In this document: positions 9,649-42,222 of the stretch, one piece after another | How positions within the stretch are numbered: position 1 is the stretch's first letter | Layout of the letters: every line of letters begins with the position of its first letter | Assembly: GCA_963653505.1 (NCBI GenBank) | Contig: CAVJWL010000002.1 | Coordinates: forward strand, 2,638 to 66,637 | Direction of reading: 5' to 3' | Source of the DNA: an uncultured Prevotellaceae bacterium | Lineage (GTDB): Bacteria; Bacillota_I; Bacilli_A; RFN20; CAG-288 | DNA: 64,000 bases | Notes under the pieces: model-generated | Seen by the model: only the letters and a program-made list of their open reading frames with translations | The model's database searches: none | What the model was told of the DNA's origin: nothing | Made by a program: the position numbers and the translations under genes

Positions 9649-11422
9649 AGAAAAAAAATATACCATCAATGAATTGATGAAACATTCAAAAGGATATTAT
9701 AAAGATATCACATTTACATGGGTTTTCGTTTTGTTAGAGACAGCTTTAGAAATTGGCATTGCTGCACTTCTATCTTACTTACTTGAAGCAATACAAGGTG
9801 TTAACAATAACGGAGTACCAAATTTAAACGGCATCATCATGTGGTCATGTATCATCATCACCATGGCAGTTGTCGCCGCAGTCTTTGGCATTTTAGCTGG
9901 TTATTGGTCTAGCAGTGCTTCTTGCGGATTTGGTAAAAATCTCAGAGATGCAATGTTTGTTAAAATTCAGGATTATTCCTTTAAAAACATCGATAAATTC
10001 TCCCCAGCTTCTATCGTAACAAGAACAACTACCGATGTTACTAATGTTCAATTTTCCTTCATGATGATTTTAAGAACTGTCTTAAGAGCTCCATTCATGA
10101 TGATATTCTCACTGATCATGTGCTTTGTCTTCGCGCCAAAATTATCATGGATCTTCTTGATCATCATTCCAGTTCTTTTATTCTTACTTTTATTCATCTC
10201 TTCAAAAGCTCATCCAATCTTTGTCAAAATCTTCGATACATATGATGATTTGAACTCATCAGTTGAAGAAGATGTCGACGGTATCAGAGTTGTCAAATCA
10301 TTCGGAAGAAAAGAATATCACGTAAATCATTTCAATTCCGTTTCCAATGATATTTATAAAAACTATATTCACGCTGAAAAACTCTTAGCCTTCAATTCAC
10401 CTTTGATGAATTTTGCTATCTTCTCAGCTATGATACTTCTTTCAGTTTTAGGCGCTTTCTTAATTACAGGTAGCAATAGTGCTGAATTGAATGTTGAGAA
10501 GCTCTCTTCCTTATTCACCTATGTCATGATGATCTTGATGTCCCTTATGATGATATCAATGGTCTATGTCATGATAACTATCGCAAGAAATTCTGCTGAA
10601 CGTATCATCGAAATCATCAATGAAGTTCCAGATATCAAAAATAAAGAAAATCCAGTGATGGAAGTTAAAAACGGCGATGTCGATTTCGAAAATGTCAATT
10701 TCGGATACAATGACAAAACCTTGGTTTTGAAAGATATCAATTTGCATTTCAAGCAAGGTCAAACAGTCGGTATCATCGGACCTACTGGTAGCAGTAAAAC
10801 TTCTCTTGTCTCATTGATTGCTAGACTCTATGATGTAACCACAGGTGAGGTCAAAGTCGGTGGTGTCAACGTCAAAGATTATGATTTGAAAGTATTGAGA
10901 GATTCTGTTGCTGTTGTTTTACAAAAGAACGTATTATTTACAGGTACTATTAGAGACAATCTTAAATGGGGCAATGAAAATGCAACAGATGAAGAAATCT
11001 GGAAAGCTTGTGATTTAGCTCAAGCTAGCGAATTCTTGCATTCATTCCCAGAAGGACTTGATACTATGATTGTCGAAGGTGGTACTAATGTCTCTGGCGG
11101 TCAAAAACAAAGACTTTGTATCGCAAGAGCTTTACTCAAAAATCCAAAGATCTTAATTCTCGATGATTCTACAAGCGCATGTGATACTCACACTGATGCT
11201 ATGATAAGACAAGCTTTAGGTTCAACTCGTCCTGATGTCACAAAGTTCATCATCGCTCAACGTGTTTTATCAATCAAAGACTGCGACATCATTCTTGTCA
11301 TGGATAACAATGGAACAATTGTCAACATCGGAAATAATGATGAATTGATGGCTAATTCCGCTGTTTATAAAGAATTATATGAGTCTCAATTAGGTGGAGG
11401 TGATTTCGATGTCAACGAATAA
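9626..11422 (+). CDS. ABC transporter ATP-binding/permease protein (type I exporter half-transporter)
   Basis: 598 aa. An N-terminal 6-TM domain is followed by Walker A GPTGSSKTS, signature VSGGQKQR and Walker B ILILDDSTSA. Confidence 0.85.
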   Translation: MEKKKSLKEKKYTINELMKHSKGYYKDITFTWVFVLLETALEIGIAALLSYLLEAIQGVNNNGVPNLNGIIMWSCIIITMAVVAAVFGILAGYWSSSASCGFGKNLRDAMFVKIQDYSFKNIDKFSPASIVTRTTTDVTNVQFSFMMILRTVLRAPFMMIFSLIMCFVFAPKLSWIFLIIIPVLLFLLLFISSKAHPIFVKIFDTYDDLNSSVEEDVDGIRVVKSFGRKEYHVNHFNSVSNDIYKNYIHAEKLLAFNSPLMNFAIFSAMILLSVLGAFLITGSNSAELNVEKLSSLFTYVMMILMSLMMISMVYVMITIARNSAERIIEIINEVPDIKNKENPVMEVKNGDVDFENVNFGYNDKTLVLKDINLHFKQGQTVGIIGPTGSSKTSLVSLIARLYDVTTGEVKVGGVNVKDYDLKVLRDSVAVVLQKNVLFTGTIRDNLKWGNENATDEEIWKACDLAQASEFLHSFPEGLDTMIVEGGTNVSGGQKQRLCIARALLKNPKILILDDSTSACDTHTDAMIRQALGSTRPDVTKFIIAQRVLSIKDCDIILVMDNNGTIVNIGNNDELMANSAVYKELYESQLGGGDFDVNE

Positions 11423-13388
11423 AAAAACAAAAAATATGTCTGCGATGAAAAGACTTCTCCAATTAGTCTTCAAATTCTATCCCGGCCAATTCTTCATCGT
11501 TTGCATTTGTATTCTTCTTTCCTCTTTCGCTTCAGTTGCTGCTTCTTATTTTGTCGGTACCATCTTGATTGACAATTTCATCAACACATCTTTATCTCAA
11601 GATATAAAACCTGCTTATGATTTCTTGATAAATGACGCCACCTATCTTGGTATGTCATTCGGTACTACTTTAGTTGTTATGGGATGTCTTTTTGCAATCG
11701 GTGTTATAGCTTCATATTTCTATAACTTCATGATGGCTTTCATCTCTCAAGGTATTCAAAAGAAGATCAGAGATCATCTATTTGAACACATGCAAGACTT
11801 ACCTGTCAGTTTCTTCGATCAACACACCCATGGTAATATCATGTCTATCTATACCAATGATGTTGATACATTAAGAGAAATGTTAGCAAGAAGTCTTCCG
11901 ATGATGGTCTCAAGCTTTGTCACTATGATTGCATGCTTTGTCATGATGATCGTCACTGACTTCTATCTCACTCTTGTCGTCTTATTCTTCGGTGTCATCA
12001 TGTTCTTCTTGACAAAGTTCTTCGCTGGTCACAGCGGCAAATACTTTATTAAACAACAAATTGAACTTGCAAACACCAATGGTTATATCGAAGAGATGAT
12101 CACCGGTCAAAAAGTTGTCAAAGTCTTCAACTATGAAAAGAGAAATATCGAAGGCTTTAGAAAACATAACGATGAATTATACAATCAAGCTGTCAAAGCC
12201 AATCGTTATGCAAACACCCTTATGCCAGCTGTCAACCAATTAGGTAACCTTCAATATGCAGTCTTAGCTTTAATCGGTGGATTATTCGTCGTCAACTCAG
12301 TCACTAGTTATTCCTTAAAAGATATGTTAACTGGCGGACATAATTTCGGAGCTACTTCTAGCAATGGTACCTTGCTCAACATCGGTATCATCGTTTCCTT
12401 CTTATTATTTGCAAAATCATTCGTCAATCCGATCGGACAGATGGCTCAACAGTTGAACACTGTCACAATGGCCCTTGCTGGTGCTGATAGAATTTTCAAG
12501 ATGACCGATGAACCAAGTGAAGTCGATGAAGGATATGTCGAACTTGTCAATGCCAAAGAAGATGAAAACGGAAATCCCGTCGAAGTCAAAGAAAGAACTG
12601 GAAAATGGGCATGGAAACATCCGCATGGAGATGGAACAACTACTTATACTTGGTTAAAAGGTAAGATCAATGTCAATCATGTTGACTTTGGATATGTACC
12701 TAACAAAATCGTTCTTCACGATATCACAGTCTATGCTGAACCTGGTCAAAAAATCGCTTTTGTCGGTCCAACTGGTGCTGGTAAAACTACAATCACAAAT
12801 CTTTTAAATCGTTTCTATGATATCGCAGATGGTAAGATAAGATATGATGATATCAACATCAACAAAATCAAAAAAGATGATTTAAGAAGATCTTTAGGTA
12901 TGGTCTTCCAAGATACAAAGCTCTTCACTGGTACTGTTATGGAAAATATCAGATACGGAAAATTAGATGCTACTGATGAAGAAGTTTATGCCGCTGCTAA
13001 ATTGGCAAATGCTGAACCATTCATCAAACAACTTCCAGATGGATATAACACTGTCCTTAAAAATGGTGGTGCTAGCTTATCTCAAGGTCAAAGACAACTC
13101 CTTGCTATCGCAAGAGCTGCCATTGCAAATCCACCAGTTCTCATTCTTGATGAAGCTACTTCATCAATCGACTCAAGAACTGAAGCTATGGTCACCAAAG
13201 GTATGGATGCCATCATGAAAGGAAGAACTGTCTTTGTCATCGCTCATAGACTTTCAACCATCAAAAATAGTGATGTCATCATGGTCTTAGATCACGGCAG
13301 TATCATCGAACGTGGTTCTCACGATTCGCTTCTTGCTCAAAAAGGAAAATACTACCAACTCTATACTGGCAATTCTATCAAAGAATAA
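11394..13388 (+). CDS. ABC transporter ATP-binding/permease protein (heterodimer partner)
   Basis: 664 aa. TM domain followed by GPTGAGKTT, LSQGQRQ and ILILDEATSS. It overlaps the upstream gene, which fits a heterodimeric multidrug-type exporter. Confidence 0.85.
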   Translation: MEVISMSTNKKTKNMSAMKRLLQLVFKFYPGQFFIVCICILLSSFASVAASYFVGTILIDNFINTSLSQDIKPAYDFLINDATYLGMSFGTTLVVMGCLFAIGVIASYFYNFMMAFISQGIQKKIRDHLFEHMQDLPVSFFDQHTHGNIMSIYTNDVDTLREMLARSLPMMVSSFVTMIACFVMMIVTDFYLTLVVLFFGVIMFFLTKFFAGHSGKYFIKQQIELANTNGYIEEMITGQKVVKVFNYEKRNIEGFRKHNDELYNQAVKANRYANTLMPAVNQLGNLQYAVLALIGGLFVVNSVTSYSLKDMLTGGHNFGATSSNGTLLNIGIIVSFLLFAKSFVNPIGQMAQQLNTVTMALAGADRIFKMTDEPSEVDEGYVELVNAKEDENGNPVEVKERTGKWAWKHPHGDGTTTYTWLKGKINVNHVDFGYVPNKIVLHDITVYAEPGQKIAFVGPTGAGKTTITNLLNRFYDIADGKIRYDDININKIKKDDLRRSLGMVFQDTKLFTGTVMENIRYGKLDATDEEVYAAAKLANAEPFIKQLPDGYNTVLKNGGASLSQGQRQLLAIARAAIANPPVLILDEATSSIDSRTEAMVTKGMDAIMKGRTVFVIAHRLSTIKNSDVIMVLDHGSIIERGSHDSLLAQKGKYYQLYTGNSIKE

Positions 13389-34184: not shown

Positions 34185-34298
34185 AGTTGCCTCCTAAAAA
34201 CGAATAGTATTTTAACAATAAAAAAAATACATTAATAGACTTGAAATCAAAAAAGAGTTTTCAAAAAAAATCCAAGACGGTTAAATCTTGGACATTTT

Positions 34299-35110
34299 TC
34301 ATAAATCAACAATACTCTCAAGCATGAAGACATCGATGAATTAATTATCGATAGTAAGAGAAGAATCAAAATCAACAATACTCTCAAGCAAATTGCTGAA
34401 AATAACGTAAATAAATTAGTAAGAGAAGAATCAAAATCAACAATACTCTCAAGCAATAATGACGGTCTTATACAAGGTTTTTTAGTAAGAGAAGAATCAA
34501 AATCAACAATACTCTCAAGCGAAATTGGAACGGAAAATGGATTTATTCAAGTAAGAGAAGAATCAAAATCAACAATACTCTCAAGCTTAATGACGTCTCG
34601 ATTACCTTAGGCGCTGTAAGAGAAGAATCAAAATCAACAATACTCTCAAGCATAATTTTCTTTAAAACCCGAATACAAACGTAAGAGAAGAATCAAAATC
34701 AACAATACTCTCAAGCAGTTGACTGGTGGAACTGTAGCAGGTGGTTGTAAGAGAAGAATCAAAATCAACAATACTCTCAAGCTAGTCTTCTTCTTCAGTG
34801 ATTGCGAACACAGTAAGAGAAGAATCAAAATCAACAATACTCTCAAGCATGATCATATACAAGACAACGGTCTAAAAGTAAGAGAAGAATCAAAATCAAC
34901 AATACTCTCAAGCTAATCTTCTTCTTCTGTTATCGCAAAGACAGTAAGAGAAGAATCAAAATCAACAATACTCTCAAGCAGTGCGAAAATAGCATTAAAA
35001 TTAAAGTACGTAAGAGAAGAATCAAAATCAACAATACTCTCAAGCGCCGTTGTTCGTCAAAATCACACATATTCGTAAGAGAAGAATCAAAATCAACAAT
35101 ACTCTCAAGC
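34299..35110 (-). CRISPR. Type II-A CRISPR array: 12 full 36-bp repeats plus 1 degenerate terminal repeat, 12 spacers of 29-30 bp
   Basis: Plus-strand repeat GTAAGAGAAGAATCAAAATCAACAATACTCTCAAGC starts at 34354, 34419, 34485, 34551, 34616, 34681, 34747, 34813, 34878, 34944, 35010 and 35075. A degenerate partial copy (...TCATAAATCAACAATACTCTCAAGC) lies at 34299-34323. The array is adjacent to csn2 and transcribed on the minus strand with the cas operon, so the degenerate repeat is leader-distal. Confidence 0.95.
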
Positions 35111-35159
35111 CTCAAAACATGCAGTTTTTAGCTTGTTTTTTCATTGATATAGCCAAATT

Positions 35160-35855
35160 TTAACATTTTTTGCTTTTTTCTTCAATGTGAAGCTCACATA
35201 AATCAGAATCTATTCGAATGATGAATTCTTCATCAGTTTTATAGGCTGGTATGTGGCTTGATATTATCAAAAAGAAAATTTCTTGATGTCGCATTTCAGA
35301 AATAAAATATTCAAATTCTTTTTTAGACAGATAATCACATAGATTATGAAGAATTATGACTTTAAACTTAAATACATCAACCAATATCTTTATCTTTTCG
35401 ATAAGGGTAATTAAAAAATCTTCGTTATCTCCACCATATCCAACAGAAAAAGCATTTAAAAAAGTTAACAAACTCATTTCATCATCAAATTTTAATCTTA
35501 AAGGGAAATCATAAGTGATAGATGATAAATAATCATTTATTTTATTTATCAATTCTAAATAAGTTTCATTTTCTGAAACACTTATTTCACCTGCCACTTC
35601 CTTTTGAATAGTAAGATTTAGTTTCTTTTCATCAAAGGTGATAAATGAAAGATTATCTATAAAATAAATAAACTTTGTTGCATTTAATTCTATAGCATTA
35701 TCGTATAAATGAAATGCATCAATAGAATCAGTTCCGCTTAGCAATTGAAAAATGGTATTTCGATACATAAAAGAGTTTTCGATACTTATGTAGTAAAAGA
35801 TGCATTCGCTAAACTCGATTTCTTTTTCAATGTTAGGGTGCTTTAAAACCATCAT
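35160..35855 (-). CDS. csn2: CRISPR-associated protein Csn2 (short, ~230-aa form)
   Basis: 231 aa, overlaps the cas2 stop by 4 nt, and lies between cas2 and the array. This is the canonical II-A position, and the size matches short-form Csn2. Confidence 0.8.
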   Translation of the reverse strand: MMVLKHPNIEKEIEFSECIFYYISIENSFMYRNTIFQLLSGTDSIDAFHLYDNAIELNATKFIYFIDNLSFITFDEKKLNLTIQKEVAGEISVSENETYLELINKINDYLSSITYDFPLRLKFDDEMSLLTFLNAFSVGYGGDNEDFLITLIEKIKILVDVFKFKVIILHNLCDYLSKKEFEYFISEMRHQEIFFLIISSHIPAYKTDEEFIIRIDSDLCELHIEEKSKKC

Positions 35856-36175
35856 AATTCTATATACCTTTGATCAGTATCAACAACATCAGTTTCAAAG
35901 TCACCTAAGAAATAATCGATGTTGCTAAACTGTTTTTCAGTGACAGTAATCATTGAAATCAATCCTTGTTTTGGAAGATGTGTTTTGATTGAATTAGACA
36001 AATTTTTAACAGCCGATTCATTAATCGATAATTTGATGTATATCGATTCTTGGAACATAATAAATCCTTGTTTCTTTAAGAATTTTACAAACTGTCGATA
36101 TTCTCTTCTTTGTGCAGCAGTTTCCACTGGCAAATCAAACATTAATAATGATCTCATATATCTATAATTGCTCAT
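35852..36175 (-). CDS. cas2: CRISPR-associated endoribonuclease Cas2
   Basis: 107 aa with a type II Cas2-like sequence (LLMFDLPVETAAQRREYRQFVKFLKKQGFIMFQESIYIK). Confidence 0.9.
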   Translation of the reverse strand: MSNYRYMRSLLMFDLPVETAAQRREYRQFVKFLKKQGFIMFQESIYIKLSINESAVKNLSNSIKTHLPKQGLISMITVTEKQFSNIDYFLGDFETDVVDTDQRYIEL

Positions 36176-37043
36176 TTAAAAATTCCACTATATTTATTTT
36201 TGAAACATCCAAATTATTCAAAGCATTGAACACACTATTAACAAAATTATAAATTGCATTGATTAGAATTGTTGTCTTACCATTGCAAGATATTTCCATA
36301 TTCAATACATTAGCCAATTGTTTTTTATATTCGAATTTTGTAATCATATTCTTAACAATCATATAATCAACAAATGGTCTAAATGGTTCCATCAAATCAC
36401 AACCAAAATTAAACGGATTTTCACTCCCAATATGATGAATTCCTAATGAAGGAAGATACCCAGCACATGACACCTCTCTATTCACAGCAGAAAGTAATAT
36501 TGAATACCCATAATCTAAATAGGTATTGATTTCTTCACTTCCTTTTCTTCTATCAAAATTAGAACCAAATATAGAAGCAAAATATGTTTTAGCAGCTAAT
36601 CCTTCTCTATTTGTAGTATCACCTAATTCAACTTCATTTTCATATTTTGCTAAAATGGCACAAGCATCTAATTCTTCTTTACAAGCTAGAACAAAATGCT
36701 GATTGTGAATTTTTTGTTTGATGATATTAGTCCATACCATATCTTTAGCTTCTTTTATCCAACTGATTTGTGTTTTAATTCTTTCATAAGTATTATAAGC
36801 ACCATGCTGAGGAACTAATTCTGAAAGAGGATTATGTTTTGCATCACAAAATATCACTCTAACTTTATGATTTATAAGCTCAGCAAGTAATGCAGAAGTA
36901 ATGCATACTTGCTGATTTTCAATAATCAAAATAGAAATATCGTCTAATAAGATTCTCGATTCTTTATCGCTTCTACATACAAGATAATTTAGTTGAGTTT
37001 CAAGTTTACATCTATTACTAATTTTAACTATTCTAAATCCCAT
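36162..37043 (-). CDS. cas1: CRISPR-associated endonuclease Cas1
   Basis: 293 aa with a type II Cas1-like N-terminus (GFRIVKISNRCKLETQLNYLV...VRVIFCDAKHNP). It overlaps the cas9 stop. Confidence 0.9.
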   Translation of the reverse strand: MGFRIVKISNRCKLETQLNYLVCRSDKESRILLDDISILIIENQQVCITSALLAELINHKVRVIFCDAKHNPLSELVPQHGAYNTYERIKTQISWIKEAKDMVWTNIIKQKIHNQHFVLACKEELDACAILAKYENEVELGDTTNREGLAAKTYFASIFGSNFDRRKGSEEINTYLDYGYSILLSAVNREVSCAGYLPSLGIHHIGSENPFNFGCDLMEPFRPFVDYMIVKNMITKFEYKKQLANVLNMEISCNGKTTILINAIYNFVNSVFNALNNLDVSKINIVEFLNEQL

Positions 37044-37046
37044 AAA

Positions 37047-40000
37047 TTAATCCTCTGGGACAGTGAATAAAACAAATTCTTTAAAACCAGTAGTTGATGT
37101 CTGAACAATACGAGTTCCTAAAGTCAACTTTTGATTAGTTCTTATACAACCACATTTTGCAGGCAGACCCAACAATGAAAGATTTCGTCCTTGAACACTC
37201 TTACATGATAACAAATCAATCATGGTGGAAAGAATAATCAAACAATCTTTAGTTGAAAGATTATAGAACTTTTCTTTTGCATCTTTAACCTTTATAAACA
37301 AATTCCCTAAAGCAGGTAAACAATTATAATCTGGCTTGGAATAAACCACATTTGTAATATAATCAAACAATTTAATCAATTCTTCTCTTGTAATCTTTCC
37401 TCTAGTACAATCAATATCATCTTTGCCGAATTTATCTAAAACTGATAAATCAATTTTCTCTTTTCCTGCTTGATTATTTTTTCCTAATAATTTGCTTATT
37501 TTCTTAATAATCTTTACATATTCTATAGGCATAAATAATTCGGAGTTATTGACGCAAATAATGCTACCATCAGATTTACCTCTGATTCTTAATTTTGTAA
37601 ATTTAATGCAATCACCTTTTTTATTTGGCATTTCAAGAATTGTTTCCATTAACAATTTTTCAATTAAAATTTCAGGATTTTTCAGTTTTCTAGTTTCAAC
37701 AAGATAATTTTCTAATTTCTTTTTATCATTTCCTAATCCAATTCTTATAACTTTTGGAATGAATTCAATTGAGTAATTGTGTTTGCCTTTTTTTCCATCA
37801 GATTTAACCAAAGAAACATATGGATTACTTAAATCGGAGTAACCACCATATTTGGATTCAAATCCTGGATTATTAAATGGTGCTTCCATTTTTAGTGGGA
37901 AAGAGGCGCCGCCTTCATTTGCAGAATGAATTGTCGCTTTAAAGAATCCACCATCGCCCACTTGTTCGTATAGCATATGTGTAACTAATGGATCGTTATA
38001 AGATAAATACTTTCTTACTAAATCAATAGTTCCTGTTGAATTTTCATCTTCAACATCACCTTTATATGTCATAACACCAGTTTTTGAATCTATGTATTTT
38101 TTAGCTTTCCAAATTTGAGTGTCACTCATCAATATGTACTGATCGTGTTTAAATACATGTTCAACACTGACATTTGTTTGTTCTAAGTGTTCCATCATAT
38201 ATTTAATAGCATTTGGATTACCATTGCTAAATCTCTTATAAAATACATTACCGACTACAACATTTAAATACGCATCATGAGCGTGATGGAAATTATTAAC
38301 ATCTCTTGATTTTGGAATATTAAATACTCTTCTAAATTCTGAAACTAAACCAGCTTTAGAATATATAATCTTGGATTTTTCTCCATCTACTTTCTTTAAA
38401 ACATCACATACAGCTTTGACTGATTGATTAGTAGTGACAAGTTGTCGATTGATGAAACCAGAGATTTCATCAGCACTGAGAGGTTTATTTTCTGATCTTA
38501 GAATTCTATTTATCTTCTCTTTAGGCATAAATTCCGGGAATTTAGAGGCTAAAGCTTTGATAAAATTAACAGCTTTTTTCGTAATAATTTCTCTCTTGAT
38601 TGGATAATTATCACTCTTCTTATTATTTATACTTCTTTCAACTAAGACAGTATTTATAAAACTATCATCTTTAACTTTTGCTTGTGGAATAATATGGTCG
38701 ATATCATAATCTTGTAAATTATTCAAATCTATATTTTCACCTGAATATACAGACTTTCCAAGTTGCATAAAATAAAGATACATTTTTTTACCTTTATTTT
38801 TATCTCTAAAATCATTTTCTTGTTTCAAACTAGCTTCATTTTTCAGATGTTCTAAATCGATATCTTCAAAAAGACCATTCTTAGCTGTTTTTAAGGTTTT
38901 TACAATCAAATCTTTTCTTGATACACTGCGTTTCTTTTCACGTTCTTCTCTTGTTGATTCAATAAAATAAGAATCGAAATGATCAATTTTTAAAATCTCT
39001 TTTAATTCATTTACAATCTTAACCGTTTGATAAAGAGCTCTTTTCATAACAGGAGATGTATATGTTGAAGCAATGACATCATCCATATTGGTATTTAAAT
39101 CGCCGATTTCTTCTTCAATTTGATCCATAAATGAATATTTATAAGAACCATCACTATTTTTAGTTGTGAGAATTTGCATGAAATTATCATTGGTTTGCAA
39201 CATCAAATCCATAATAGATAACTGAATAACTTCACCAGTATTAATATTTGTTTTATCGACGTATAGACCATTTAATAATTTTCTAGATAATCGAGCCCAA
39301 CCTTCAAATTTAATATTTGACAAATACTTGATTTGTGCAGGAGTTAATTTATGCTTTTTCAATCTCTTTTGAACTAATTCTTTATTTTCAAATGTTGTGA
39401 TTTCGTTGATAATCTCATCAGCTAATTCTTGCTTAGATTTATCAGTTAACAATGATTCGCCAAATGCTGCATCATTCATCATAATAATCCAAGATGATAG
39501 AGAAGCATGCATGTCAGCAGCGCTCAATTCTTTTAAATCATTCGAATCACCTGTAAAGATATCAATTTTGACCCCATATTTTCTCTTAAATGCCTCTTTG
39601 ACAGTTTTTAATGTTGGTTTATTCTTTAAATAAACTTCTCTAATGATATATTCTTTATCTTCCACTGATATAAATTGAGCATCTGATGCTCCATTTACAC
39701 ATAATCTCCATTTATTTATTTCATTAAGAAGAACGAACATTTGATTCAATAATGAACATTTAGGTAATGTAGGTTCATCAATCAAATATGTACAGCAATT
39801 TTTCAAGTTCTCCATAAATTTTTCAGCTGTCTTATCTTCGTTGATAACATCATGGAAATTCCACGGAGTTATTTTTTCATCATGTCCATCATTTCTAACA
39901 ATCCAACTATGTTTTGCCTTATCAGTTAAAGGACCAACAAAATAAGGTATTTTAAATTTTAAAATTGATTCAATTTTATATGTGTATTCATCAAGATTAT

Positions 40001-41480
40001 TAAAATCTTTATCCTTATCAGCTAAGAAAGAATAATATTTTGATTGATTTTGTAAAATTTGATGCATTTCAATCAAATTCAATTGATATGGCAAAACACC
40101 ATTTTCCTTTGAATTCTGCTTGAGTAAATATTTATTTGAGTCTATAGCATTTTTAATATCAATAAGCTTCTTTTTATCACCTTCAGCAAGAGGTACAAAA
40201 TCATCTTTCAAGCTTTGTTCTATTGGTAATATCTTTTTAATTTCTTTGTATAAAACTTCCTGATTAGTTGATTTTTCAACTCTTTCTACTCTCTTTCCAA
40301 CTTTGTTATAGCCTACATAATTTGCATAATTATTAAGTGTATTTTTACCATCAGTTAAGCATTTAAAGAACCTATTGTATTCATCTGGATTATATTTTTT
40401 AACTAATTCTTTTAATATTCTAAGTTGTTCTTTATGAGTATCATAAATTTCAACCATTGATTCTGAGATATATTTATTACCTTTTAAGAGATTTGCTAAA
40501 ATTCTCAAATCATTCAACTGTTTTAAAGATAAAATTATTTGCGTTCTAGCTTCACCAATAAGTGAAGAAACACTTGGTAAAACTTTAGTTTCAAATTCCT
40601 CAGAGGAAAAATCAATATCAATTTTTAACTCATCAGATTCTTCTAAATCAGAAAAGAGACTTGATACTTTAACTTTTTTTCCTAACATCAAATCGAAAGC
40701 TAGTTTCTTAAAGCTAGTTTTTTTGATACCATTAGCTTTGAAAATTTCAATTGTTTTGTCAAATAATTCACCAGATTTGTTTTCCTTTTTAAACAAATCA
40801 ATAAGTTGTTGTGCTTTTTCATTATCACAATTAAATGTTTCATATTTGACATTATCATCTTCTTGTTGCAAATCCTTAATAGAACCATTAATTGAATCAA
40901 AAATTCCAACTATAGTATCAGGATCATTACCAATTTTATCAATCTTACCTTCTTGAAGAAAATTACCTCTATATTTAATCATATGAGCTAACGCTAAATA
41001 TATTTCTCTAATGTCAAATTTATGTTCAGGATGTTCGAGCATTTCTTTTCTAAGATGATAAATAGTAGGATAATTTTTATAAAAATCACCATCCTTATAA
41101 TTATCATCATTAAATAATAGATTATCTTTTCTTAAAACCTCATCTCTATCTTCAAGATGAATCGCTGAATTATTAAGTCTATCAAAGAAATATGGATCAA
41201 CTTTATTCATTTCTTCTTTGAATAAATCTTGCAAAAGAACAATTCTCCATTTTCTTCTTTGAAGTCTTCTTCTATTTTCTCTAGCTGCTCTTCTTTCTGA
41301 AGCATCATTAGCACTATCAAAAAGTCTAGAACCCCAAAGATGGTTACCATAATATTTAACATTTGAACCATCATGTACTTCTCTATGTTTTTTTATGATG
41401 TTGTAATTTTGATCAGTCACACAAAAACCAACAGAATCAGTTCCGATATCTAATCCTAAATAATATTTTTTGTTTTCCAT
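37047..41480 (-). CDS. cas9: CRISPR-associated endonuclease Cas9 (type II-A), 1477 aa
   Basis: RuvC-I MENKKYYLGLDIGTDSVGF, arginine-rich bridge helix RRAARENRRRLQRRKWR, HNH DIDHIIPQAKVKDDSFINTVLVERSINNKKSD, RuvC-III HHAHDAYL. I place the start at ATG 41480, which is preceded by AAGGAG. The ORF-track start (41606) adds 42 spurious residues that overlap the tracrRNA candidate. Confidence 0.95.
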   Translation of the reverse strand: MENKKYYLGLDIGTDSVGFCVTDQNYNIIKKHREVHDGSNVKYYGNHLWGSRLFDSANDASERRAARENRRRLQRRKWRIVLLQDLFKEEMNKVDPYFFDRLNNSAIHLEDRDEVLRKDNLLFNDDNYKDGDFYKNYPTIYHLRKEMLEHPEHKFDIREIYLALAHMIKYRGNFLQEGKIDKIGNDPDTIVGIFDSINGSIKDLQQEDDNVKYETFNCDNEKAQQLIDLFKKENKSGELFDKTIEIFKANGIKKTSFKKLAFDLMLGKKVKVSSLFSDLEESDELKIDIDFSSEEFETKVLPSVSSLIGEARTQIILSLKQLNDLRILANLLKGNKYISESMVEIYDTHKEQLRILKELVKKYNPDEYNRFFKCLTDGKNTLNNYANYVGYNKVGKRVERVEKSTNQEVLYKEIKKILPIEQSLKDDFVPLAEGDKKKLIDIKNAIDSNKYLLKQNSKENGVLPYQLNLIEMHQILQNQSKYYSFLADKDKDFNNLDEYTYKIESILKFKIPYFVGPLTDKAKHSWIVRNDGHDEKITPWNFHDVINEDKTAEKFMENLKNCCTYLIDEPTLPKCSLLNQMFVLLNEINKWRLCVNGASDAQFISVEDKEYIIREVYLKNKPTLKTVKEAFKRKYGVKIDIFTGDSNDLKELSAADMHASLSSWIIMMNDAAFGESLLTDKSKQELADEIINEITTFENKELVQKRLKKHKLTPAQIKYLSNIKFEGWARLSRKLLNGLYVDKTNINTGEVIQLSIMDLMLQTNDNFMQILTTKNSDGSYKYSFMDQIEEEIGDLNTNMDDVIASTYTSPVMKRALYQTVKIVNELKEILKIDHFDSYFIESTREEREKKRSVSRKDLIVKTLKTAKNGLFEDIDLEHLKNEASLKQENDFRDKNKGKKMYLYFMQLGKSVYSGENIDLNNLQDYDIDHIIPQAKVKDDSFINTVLVERSINNKKSDNYPIKREIITKKAVNFIKALASKFPEFMPKEKINRILRSENKPLSADEISGFINRQLVTTNQSVKAVCDVLKKVDGEKSKIIYSKAGLVSEFRRVFNIPKSRDVNNFHHAHDAYLNVVVGNVFYKRFSNGNPNAIKYMMEHLEQTNVSVEHVFKHDQYILMSDTQIWKAKKYIDSKTGVMTYKGDVEDENSTGTIDLVRKYLSYNDPLVTHMLYEQVGDGGFFKATIHSANEGGASFPLKMEAPFNNPGFESKYGGYSDLSNPYVSLVKSDGKKGKHNYSIEFIPKVIRIGLGNDKKKLENYLVETRKLKNPEILIEKLLMETILEMPNKKGDCIKFTKLRIRGKSDGSIICVNNSELFMPIEYVKIIKKISKLLGKNNQAGKEKIDLSVLDKFGKDDIDCTRGKITREELIKLFDYITNVVYSKPDYNCLPALGNLFIKVKDAKEKFYNLSTKDCLIILSTMIDLLSCKSVQGRNLSLLGLPAKCGCIRTNQKLTLGTRIVQTSTTGFKEFVLFTVPED

Positions 41481-41507
41481 CTTGAAATATGCTCCTTTTG
41501 ATTGTAG

Positions 41508-41583
41508 AATAGACTTGTAAATCAACAATACAAGTTCAAGTAAACAATTGTCTAAATCCACACCTGCGTTGGCAGGTTTTTTT
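41508..41583 (+). ncRNA. candidate tracrRNA (anti-repeat + intrinsic terminator), divergent from cas9
   Basis: Plus-strand GACTTGTAAATCAACAATACAAGTTCAAGTAAACAATTGTCTAAATCCACACCTGCGTTGGCAGGTTTTTTT. AAATCAACAATAC is a perfect 13-nt complement to crRNA-repeat positions 9-21, and UCAAG pairs with repeat positions 2-6 with an SpCas9-like bulge. It ends in hairpin CCTGCgttgGCAGG plus T7. Confidence 0.55.
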
Positions 41584-41730
41584 ATTACACTATTATTATA
41601 AATCAAATTTATGCAATTTCTCCAAACTTTTATAGTTTAGTTCAAACTAGGCTAATAATTTTTTTCTAAAAAGTAACTTAAAATATTTTAAAAAAACATT
41701 TATAATTCAAAAACATTACGAGGTCATTTT

Positions 41731-42222
41731 ATGAAAATAGAAAATATCAACGATGAAGACATCAAAGAATGTTTAGACATATACAACTATTACATATTAA
41801 ATACTGCTTATACATTAGAAGTGGATGAGCTGGATTTAAAAACATTTACGGAAAGAGTTCATTCTATCAAGAAAGAATACCCCTATATTGTCATCAAAGA
41901 TGATGATAATCATGTATTAGGATATGCATATCTTCACAAATTCAATGAAAGAGTAGCCTATAAAATCACAAGCGAGTTATCTATTTACATTTCTAAAGAT
42001 CATTTGAATGAACATTTAGGTTCTTTACTTTTGAATAAAATTGAAGAATTAGCAAAAGAAAGAGGAATTCAAAATATAATTTCTTCTATCACAAGTGAAA
42101 ACAAGAATTCATTGAAATTCCATGAGAATCACGGATATATCCTAGAAGGAAAGCTCAATAATATCGCATATAAATTCAATACCTATATTTCACTTTATTA
42201 CTTTAGAAAATCGATTGTTTGA
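41731..42222 (+). CDS. GNAT-family N-acetyltransferase
   Basis: 163 aa with a GNAT acetyl-CoA-binding region (LGSLLLNKIEELAKERGIQNI). Confidence 0.7.
   Translation: MKIENINDEDIKECLDIYNYYILNTAYTLEVDELDLKTFTERVHSIKKEYPYIVIKDDDNHVLGYAYLHKFNERVAYKITSELSIYISKDHLNEHLGSLLLNKIEELAKERGIQNIISSITSENKNSLKFHENHGYILEGKLNNIAYKFNTYISLYYFRKSIV

Follow-up and report, generated by a model that had tools for sequence, protein, structure and literature searches.

In the type II-A CRISPR-Cas locus (clustered and regularly interspaced short palindromic repeats with CRISPR-associated genes) of Streptococcus pyogenes SF370, the trans-activating CRISPR RNA (tracrRNA) is encoded upstream of the cas genes and on the opposite strand (Deltcheva et al. 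2011, as related in PMC5965381). The DNA analysed here is a stretch of 64 kb (hereafter "the window") on contig CAVJWL010000002.1 of assembly GCA_963653505.1, from an uncultured bacterium. It contains a complete cas9-cas1-cas2-csn2 operon with an adjacent CRISPR array, all on the minus strand, and the system is of type II-A, since csn2 is present beside cas9, cas1 and cas2. As in S. pyogenes, a tracrRNA candidate is encoded on the strand opposite to cas9, lies upstream of it and would be read away from it. We consider it very probable that the plus-strand segment 41517–41583 is the tracrRNA gene of this type II-A CRISPR-Cas9 locus, with cas9 starting at the ATG at 41480. The segment contains an anti-repeat on the right strand that has co-evolved with the repeat, it adjoins cas9, it ends in a 3' scaffold and terminator, and it is preceded by a predicted promoter of its own. 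The array runs in the same direction as the cas genes, with its degenerate repeat at the distal end; therefore the CRISPR RNA (crRNA) is read from the minus strand, and a tracrRNA on the plus strand fits, as a first-pass annotation of this DNA had argued.

That annotation had recognized a 13-nt perfect anti-repeat, and we found it at 41519–41531(+), where the sequence AAATCAACAATAC forms the upper stem as the partner of repeat positions 9–21. It occurs once in the window besides the 13 copies in the array (0.51 chance matches were expected at up to one mismatch), and there is no better anti-repeat within the 64 kb. It is followed by an AAG bulge (41532–41534; A/GAG in orthologues), which faces the unpaired A8 of the crRNA, and by the lower stem UUCAAGU (41535–41541), in which TCAAGT at 41536–41541 together with U41535 pairs with repeat positions 7–1, with G·U at both ends. 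The first-pass annotation had paired UCAAG with repeat positions 2–6 next to a bulge; the pairing and the bulge are real, but the stem has 7 bp (two of them G·U) rather than 5. It had also pointed to the palindrome ACAATTGT (41545–41552) and to a nexus-like UAAAUCC. Both are present in the sequence but neither is conserved: of the palindrome, only an outer 2-bp stem AC/GT around a variable loop of 4–6 nt is kept, which in the window makes up a nexus-like mini stem-loop at 41544–41551 (AC, 4-nt loop, GU). The hairpin and T7 terminator proposed earlier hold without change: the hairpin ACCUGC-GUUG-GCAGGU with U7 (41562–41583; hairpin 41562–41577, T-run 41577–41583) is an intrinsic terminator and the sole 3' hairpin, and it is the only terminator-like site in 41200–41900, where 0.1 would be expected.

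On the other side of the anti-repeat we predict a promoter, TTGAAA-17 nt-TAGAAT at 41482–41510(+), which is conserved in orthologues. Its -35 box lies 2–7 nt from the cas9 ATG and its spacer includes the complement of the cas9 Shine-Dalgarno sequence, so that this promoter and the ribosome-binding site of cas9 overlap. The promoter predicts a 5' end near G41517, 7 nt past the -10 box, rather than at 41508, where the RNA had been thought to start. With its 5' end placed by the -10 box and its 3' end by the T-run, the predicted gene is about 67 nt long, and the gap of 36 nt between it and the cas9 ATG is occupied by its promoter. When folded together with the repeat, the tracrRNA gives a stable duplex (-31.8 kcal/mol), as the earlier annotation expected, with 7 bp (repeat positions 1–7), A8 unpaired opposite AAG, and 13 bp (repeat positions 9–21). 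A chimera resembling a single guide RNA (sgRNA) folds into the lower stem, bulge, upper stem and 3' hairpin with z = -5.85, and none of 200 shuffles folds as well.

Homologs of the window's Cas9 are found in metagenomic assemblies, with identities from 95% down to about 41% among the 120 matches listed. The close relatives were obtained by protein search and contig look-ups, while a scan of genome contigs with the single Cas9 yielded only two distant relatives. Twelve loci were fetched (L003–L014, with Cas9 identity of 95, 76, 62, 57, 55, 56, 55, 53, 53, 52, 48 and 45%, respectively); their sources, named "Bacilli bacterium" and "Candidatus Enterosoma sp.", are metagenome-assembled genomes (MAGs) of uncultured gut Bacilli. 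In all twelve the tracrRNA element directly adjoins the start codon of cas9, on the other strand, in agreement with the divergent placement upstream of cas9 given in the first-pass annotation; in the 11 loci that reach the array, the anti-repeat covaries with the CRISPR repeat of its own locus. The shared order begins with the complement of the cas9 start, followed after 1–2 nt by the -35 box (TTGAnn/TTGACn), a spacer with the Shine-Dalgarno complement, the -10 box TAnAAT (TAAACT in L007) and, after about 7 nt, the anti-repeat; then come (A/G)AGU-UCAA(G/A)U-AA(A/G)C, a loop of 4–6 nt, GUC/GCC, a linker, the hairpin CCUGCGUUGGCAGG and the T-run. The promoter pattern CAT-n-TTGA(-35)...TAnAAT(-10) is kept in the window, in the twelve orthologues and in the distant loci L001 and L002, which show the whole compact layout too. 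The conserved tracrRNA core of L003–L014 can be written as ACAAUAC-(A/G)AGU-UCAA(G/A)U-AAAC-loop-GUC plus the hairpin CCUGCGUUGGCAGG, and the distal part of the anti-repeat differs from that of the window and matches the repeat of each locus. L008, L013 and L014 have a second hairpin; in the branch of the window the conserved hairpin is itself the terminator.

For the analysis of covariation, repeat positions 1–24, a GAAA linker and the tracrRNA core were joined for the window and the 11 fetched loci that reach the array (the contig of L004 ends in cas1). The proposed pairs are formed in 96.3% of the cells, against 32–41% when the 3' partners are slid by 1–3 columns; none of 500 shuffles reaches the observed pairing values, a count that is not a probability because the join of repeat and tracrRNA is artificial and the loci are related. 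Across the loci 12 of the 29 pairs have changed on both sides, with eight such pairs in the intermolecular helices, seven of them in the upper stem, and three in the 3' hairpin. In the distal upper stem the repeat has GAUUU and the anti-repeat AAAUC in the window, and the two sides read GUUUA and UAAAC in L006, UAAAA and UUUUA in L007, UAAAAAC and GUUUUUA in L009, AAAUCU and AGAUUU in L011, and AGAAC and GUUCU in L014. At greater length, AAAUCAAC is the partner of the repeat ..GUUGAUUU in the window, as UAAACAAC is of ..GUUGUUUA in L006 and GUUUUUAC of ..GUAAAAAC in L009. At the lower-stem pair 2-54, L013 and L014 have U-A and the other 10 loci C-G. The nexus stem is paired in 100% of the cases, with a change from A-U to G-C in L014 and a loop that differs between loci in both sequence and length. 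The pairing falls off at repeat positions 21 (paired in 9 of 12 loci) and 22 (5 of 12), exactly where the promoter predicts the RNA to start.

A covariance model trained on L005–L014, i.e. without the window and its two closest relatives L003 and L004, matches the window at 41516–41584(+) with 74.5 bits (E ~1e-19), and it also recovers the equivalent site of each of these two relatives. The next-best match in the window, at 37096–37158(+), scores 16.8 bits; we rejected it as an anti-repeat, as its complementarity to the repeat covers only 8 nt, its lower stem is broken and it lacks a hairpin. This match and a similar one in L004 (8175–8240, minus; both about 16–17 bits) are antisense to the 3' coding end of cas9, where they share AACAATACGAGTTC with the family consensus and sit under the codons for GTRIVQ. 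They are probably due to chance together with coding constraint.

Based on these features, we propose the following scheme. A sigma-70-type promoter at 41482–41510 would drive a transcript of about 67 nt, away from cas9, which would end at the hairpin and U7. The 5' part of this RNA would pair with positions 1–21 of every pre-crRNA repeat, to form the 13-bp upper stem, the bulge and the 7-bp lower stem, and its 3' part, with the 2-bp nexus-like stem and the single hairpin, would serve as the scaffold for Cas9. Cas9 is predicted to bind the duplex through the bulge, nexus and hairpin, with a dual guide RNA as the result, and the duplex is presumably processed by RNase III and/or by trimming.

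An opposing interpretation is that the stretch codes for protein, i.e. that TTG 41606 is the true start of cas9 and the resemblance to an anti-repeat a coincidence. Indeed, the reading frame is open from 41606 (37047–41606), and the 95% identical protein P0001 is annotated with the same extension. Yet the in-frame stretch upstream of the ATG contains stop codons in all 11 loci besides the window and L003, the source of P0001. The N-termini of the homologs listed follow the pattern M-x(0-11)-KK(Y/F)(Y/F)(L/V)GLD, so that the proteins start 2–13 residues before (L/V)GLD; the exceptions are P0001, with its over-call, and P0033, with a 23-residue extension of its own. A Shine-Dalgarno sequence AAGGAG (41492–41497, minus) precedes the ATG at 41480 by 11 nt, and its complement CTCCTT/TTCCTT is conserved in orthologues. 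Moreover, the conservation of the DNA tracks RNA pairing rather than codons. We regard the coding interpretation as highly improbable. Judged from homologue N-termini, orthologue stops in the extension and the AAGGAG before the ATG, cas9 spans 37047–41480 (1477 aa), as the first-pass annotation had trimmed it, and the annotated start is 42 codons too early; the extension (41481–41606, minus) is an artefact of the open frame across the tracrRNA gene. The same has happened in the public MAG GCA_963640635.1, where P0001 (1521 aa; L003 3782–8347, contig CAVIAS010000057.1) has an over-called N-terminus of 42–44 residues across its own tracrRNA gene. In both genomes cas9 was called too long and a non-coding RNA gene was missed.

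It could also be argued that the functional RNA is read from the minus strand, as a repeat-like (cr-like) element of the cas9 leader, and that the true tracrRNA is encoded elsewhere in the genome. CRISPR loci are known to contain regulatory RNAs that resemble the repeat, the minus-strand sequence here does so too (ACTTGAACTTGTATTGTTGATTT), and a conserved TATAAT on the cas9 strand past the terminator (see below) suggests that the minus strand is also transcribed here. The promoter and the hairpin with its U-run are nevertheless on the plus strand, and the antisense hairpin has no U-run after it. Both the hairpin and the duplex contain G·U pairs, which are compatible with a plus-strand RNA only; those of the hairpin (91-108, 92-106 and 94-104) would become A·C mismatches in the antisense RNA. 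The window contains no further anti-repeat, and no second tracrRNA candidate was found beside the cas genes in any of the orthologous loci. We find this explanation very unlikely. That a 13-nt complement of the repeat should stand by chance beside an unrelated terminator has in its favor the AT-rich sequence and the duplexes of similar energy that arise by chance in the window. There is, however, no plus-strand gene ending here for such a terminator to serve, the exact layout is kept in loci whose Cas9 identity is as low as 45%, where compensatory changes follow the repeats, and the covariance model gives E ~1e-19. We regard coincidence as a practically negligible explanation. The identification of 41517–41583(+) as a tracrRNA gene has several points to answer as well. 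Rfam gives no family at gathering thresholds over the whole window and chance-level matches only (E up to 10) for 41300–41800; this says little, because tracrRNAs differ greatly between Cas9 branches. The tracrRNA alone folds no better than shuffles (z = -1.1), as expected of an RNA that pairs in trans. The energy of its duplex with the repeat (-21.8 kcal/mol) is comparable to that at five other sites in the window (-21 to -23.5 kcal/mol, at about 19200(-), 1100(-), 11860(+), 29700(-) and 8840(+)), so that duplex energy fails as a test of uniqueness and the case rests on architecture and covariation; the five sites themselves were rejected as anti-repeats, as their pairing is interrupted or rich in G·U, all of them are located in coding sequence or overlap it, and none has a terminator. 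Further, the uniqueness of the anti-repeat extends over 64 kb of the genome, the 5' end of the RNA is a prediction based on the promoter, and the nexus stem is a weakly supported element of just 2 bp with one covarying lineage. Finally, the chimeras used for covariation are artificial, the loci are related and the structure was based on the sequence of the window; we therefore take the compensatory changes as evidence, not the shuffle counts.

The tracrRNA gene also bears on where cas9 itself is transcribed from. The 36-nt gap is filled by the tracrRNA promoter and a divergent gene begins at 41731(+), the next gene upstream of cas9; the cas9 promoter must therefore sit within the tracrRNA gene or past it. 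A candidate past it is TGGAGA-18-TATAAT (41595–41624, minus; TATAAT at 41600–41595), to which we assign this function by inference. Of 15 loci, 7 have TATAAT or TACAAT on the cas9 strand at 10–12 nt past the T-run and 12 have it within the first 45 nt, against a background of 0.001 per position; it stands just past the tracrRNA terminator in the window, L003–L006, L013, L014, L001 and L002. An internal candidate, TAGACA-18-TATTGT (41554–41525, minus), was rated unlikely: its hexamers are the complements of constrained parts of the tracrRNA and, as read from the orthologue sequences, they come to lie 18 to 20 nt apart depending on the length of the nexus loop. The leader of cas9 is thus probably about 108 nt long and antisense to the whole tracrRNA. 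A more speculative picture, to which we give about one chance in three at best, is that in this branch of II-A systems the tracrRNA gene is nested antisense in the 5' leader of cas9, between promoters that face each other across about 70 bp, with a cas9 mRNA perfectly complementary to the tracrRNA and the levels of Cas9 and tracrRNA possibly coupled. If so, transcriptional interference, or antisense pairing with cleavage by RNase III, could couple the two levels and would provide a built-in dosage control unlike the repression by tracr-L, the natural sgRNA of S. pyogenes. That the tracrRNA promoter, the ribosome-binding site of cas9 and, beyond the tracrRNA gene, the likely cas9 promoter are packed so closely likewise suggests a simple regulatory coupling. 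Our search of the literature, which was not exhaustive, found nothing specific on a tracrRNA overlapping the leader or promoter of cas9, or on this repeat sequence.

The products of the four cas genes all exceed the NCBIfam cut-offs: Cas9 (TIGR01865, 768 bits), Cas1 of type II (36162–37043, minus; TIGR03639, 299 bits), Cas2 (35852–36175, minus; TIGR01573) and the subtype-defining Csn2 (231 aa; 35160–35855, minus; TIGR01866, 91 bits, where the cut-off is 35). In a comparison of the window Cas9 with solved structures, the SpCas9 chains are matched with E ~1e-126, and two other Cas9s, 9jwk and 8pj9, rank ahead of them. In L008, the gene between cas1 and csn2 (11402–11608) is called at 68 aa and has no Pfam hit, vs about 107 aa for cas2; cas2 may be disrupted in this locus.

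The CRISPR array (34288–35110, minus) starts 49 bases past csn2. It consists of 12 perfect copies of the 36-nt repeat GCTTGAGAGTATTGTTGATTTTGATTCTTCTCTTAC (minus strand) across 34354–35110, 12 spacers of 29–30 nt each, and a degenerate terminal repeat as the 13th copy, of which 21 nt are intact at 34303–34323. The leader between csn2 and the first repeat (35111–35159, minus) is conserved in the window and in L003–L014; it contains ..GCTAAAAA.. and ends with ..TTTGAG abutting the repeat, which we take to be reminiscent of the leader-anchoring sequences of II-A arrays. In two orthologous loci few repeats were seen: L009 shows a single one in the 260 nt after csn2 (about 12297–12560), and in L011 a full repeat and a truncated second one are followed by a Fic gene (about 12259–12450); in both the anti-repeat still matches the repeat. 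Spacers 3 and 5 of the window (34914–34943 and 34783–34812, minus), TGTCTTTGCGATAACAGAAGAAGAAGATTA and TGTGTTCGCAATCACTGAAGAAGAAGACTA, are identical at 24 of 30 positions, which suggests repeated acquisition against diverged versions of one target. Searches with the array spacers against 50,697 phage records gave chance-level matches only, and three spacers had zero exact matches in IMG/VR; in these two collections no protospacers were found for the variant spacers 3 and 5, and no protospacer adjacent motif could be derived from them.

The repeat and the tracrRNA define the predicted guide RNA of a previously uncharacterised branch of Cas9 (1477 aa) from gut Bacilli. This compact natural scaffold, with its one 3' hairpin, could be converted to an sgRNA, about 90 nt long besides the spacer, by joining GCUUGAGAGUAUUGUUGAUUU, GAAA and 41519–41583.

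Compared with S. pyogenes, the window has the same operon order, cas9-cas1-cas2-csn2 followed by the array, an anti-repeat whose partner is the 5' part of the repeat, in the same geometry of lower stem, bulge and upper stem, and a nexus-like element followed by a terminator hairpin. The differences are in the details. The bulge of SpCas9 guides consists of GA in the crRNA and AAGU in the tracrRNA, whereas in the window it consists of A8 and AAG, with G7 in a G·U pair. The SpCas9 repeat begins with GUUUUAGAG and that of the window with GCUUGAGAG; the SpCas9 tracrRNA has two 3' hairpins, in contrast to the single one of the window, which doubles as terminator. The pairing extends over about 21 bp in the window, compared with the stretch of 25 nt given for S. 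pyogenes in PMC5965381. The long form of the S. pyogenes tracrRNA (tracr-L) targets a site just downstream of the transcription start of Pcas9, and in loci with such a form the distance from the short-form tracrRNA to cas9 is greater by about 200 bp (bioRxiv 10.1101/2020.05.21.102756); the window, with one predicted promoter and 36 nt to the cas9 ATG, has no room for it. Also unlike in S. pyogenes, the predicted 5' end of the primary tracrRNA coincides with the end of the duplex. By analogy, processing by RNase III may perhaps be dispensable here; this is the one point shared with the type II-C system of Neisseria meningitidis, in which crRNA biogenesis is independent of RNase III (Zhang et al. 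2013, via PMC5965381), while the window encodes a II-A system with csn2. Set beside these systems, the tracrRNA gene of the window is canonical and ordinary in kind, and the nested promoters may be the only part of it that is perhaps worth following up.

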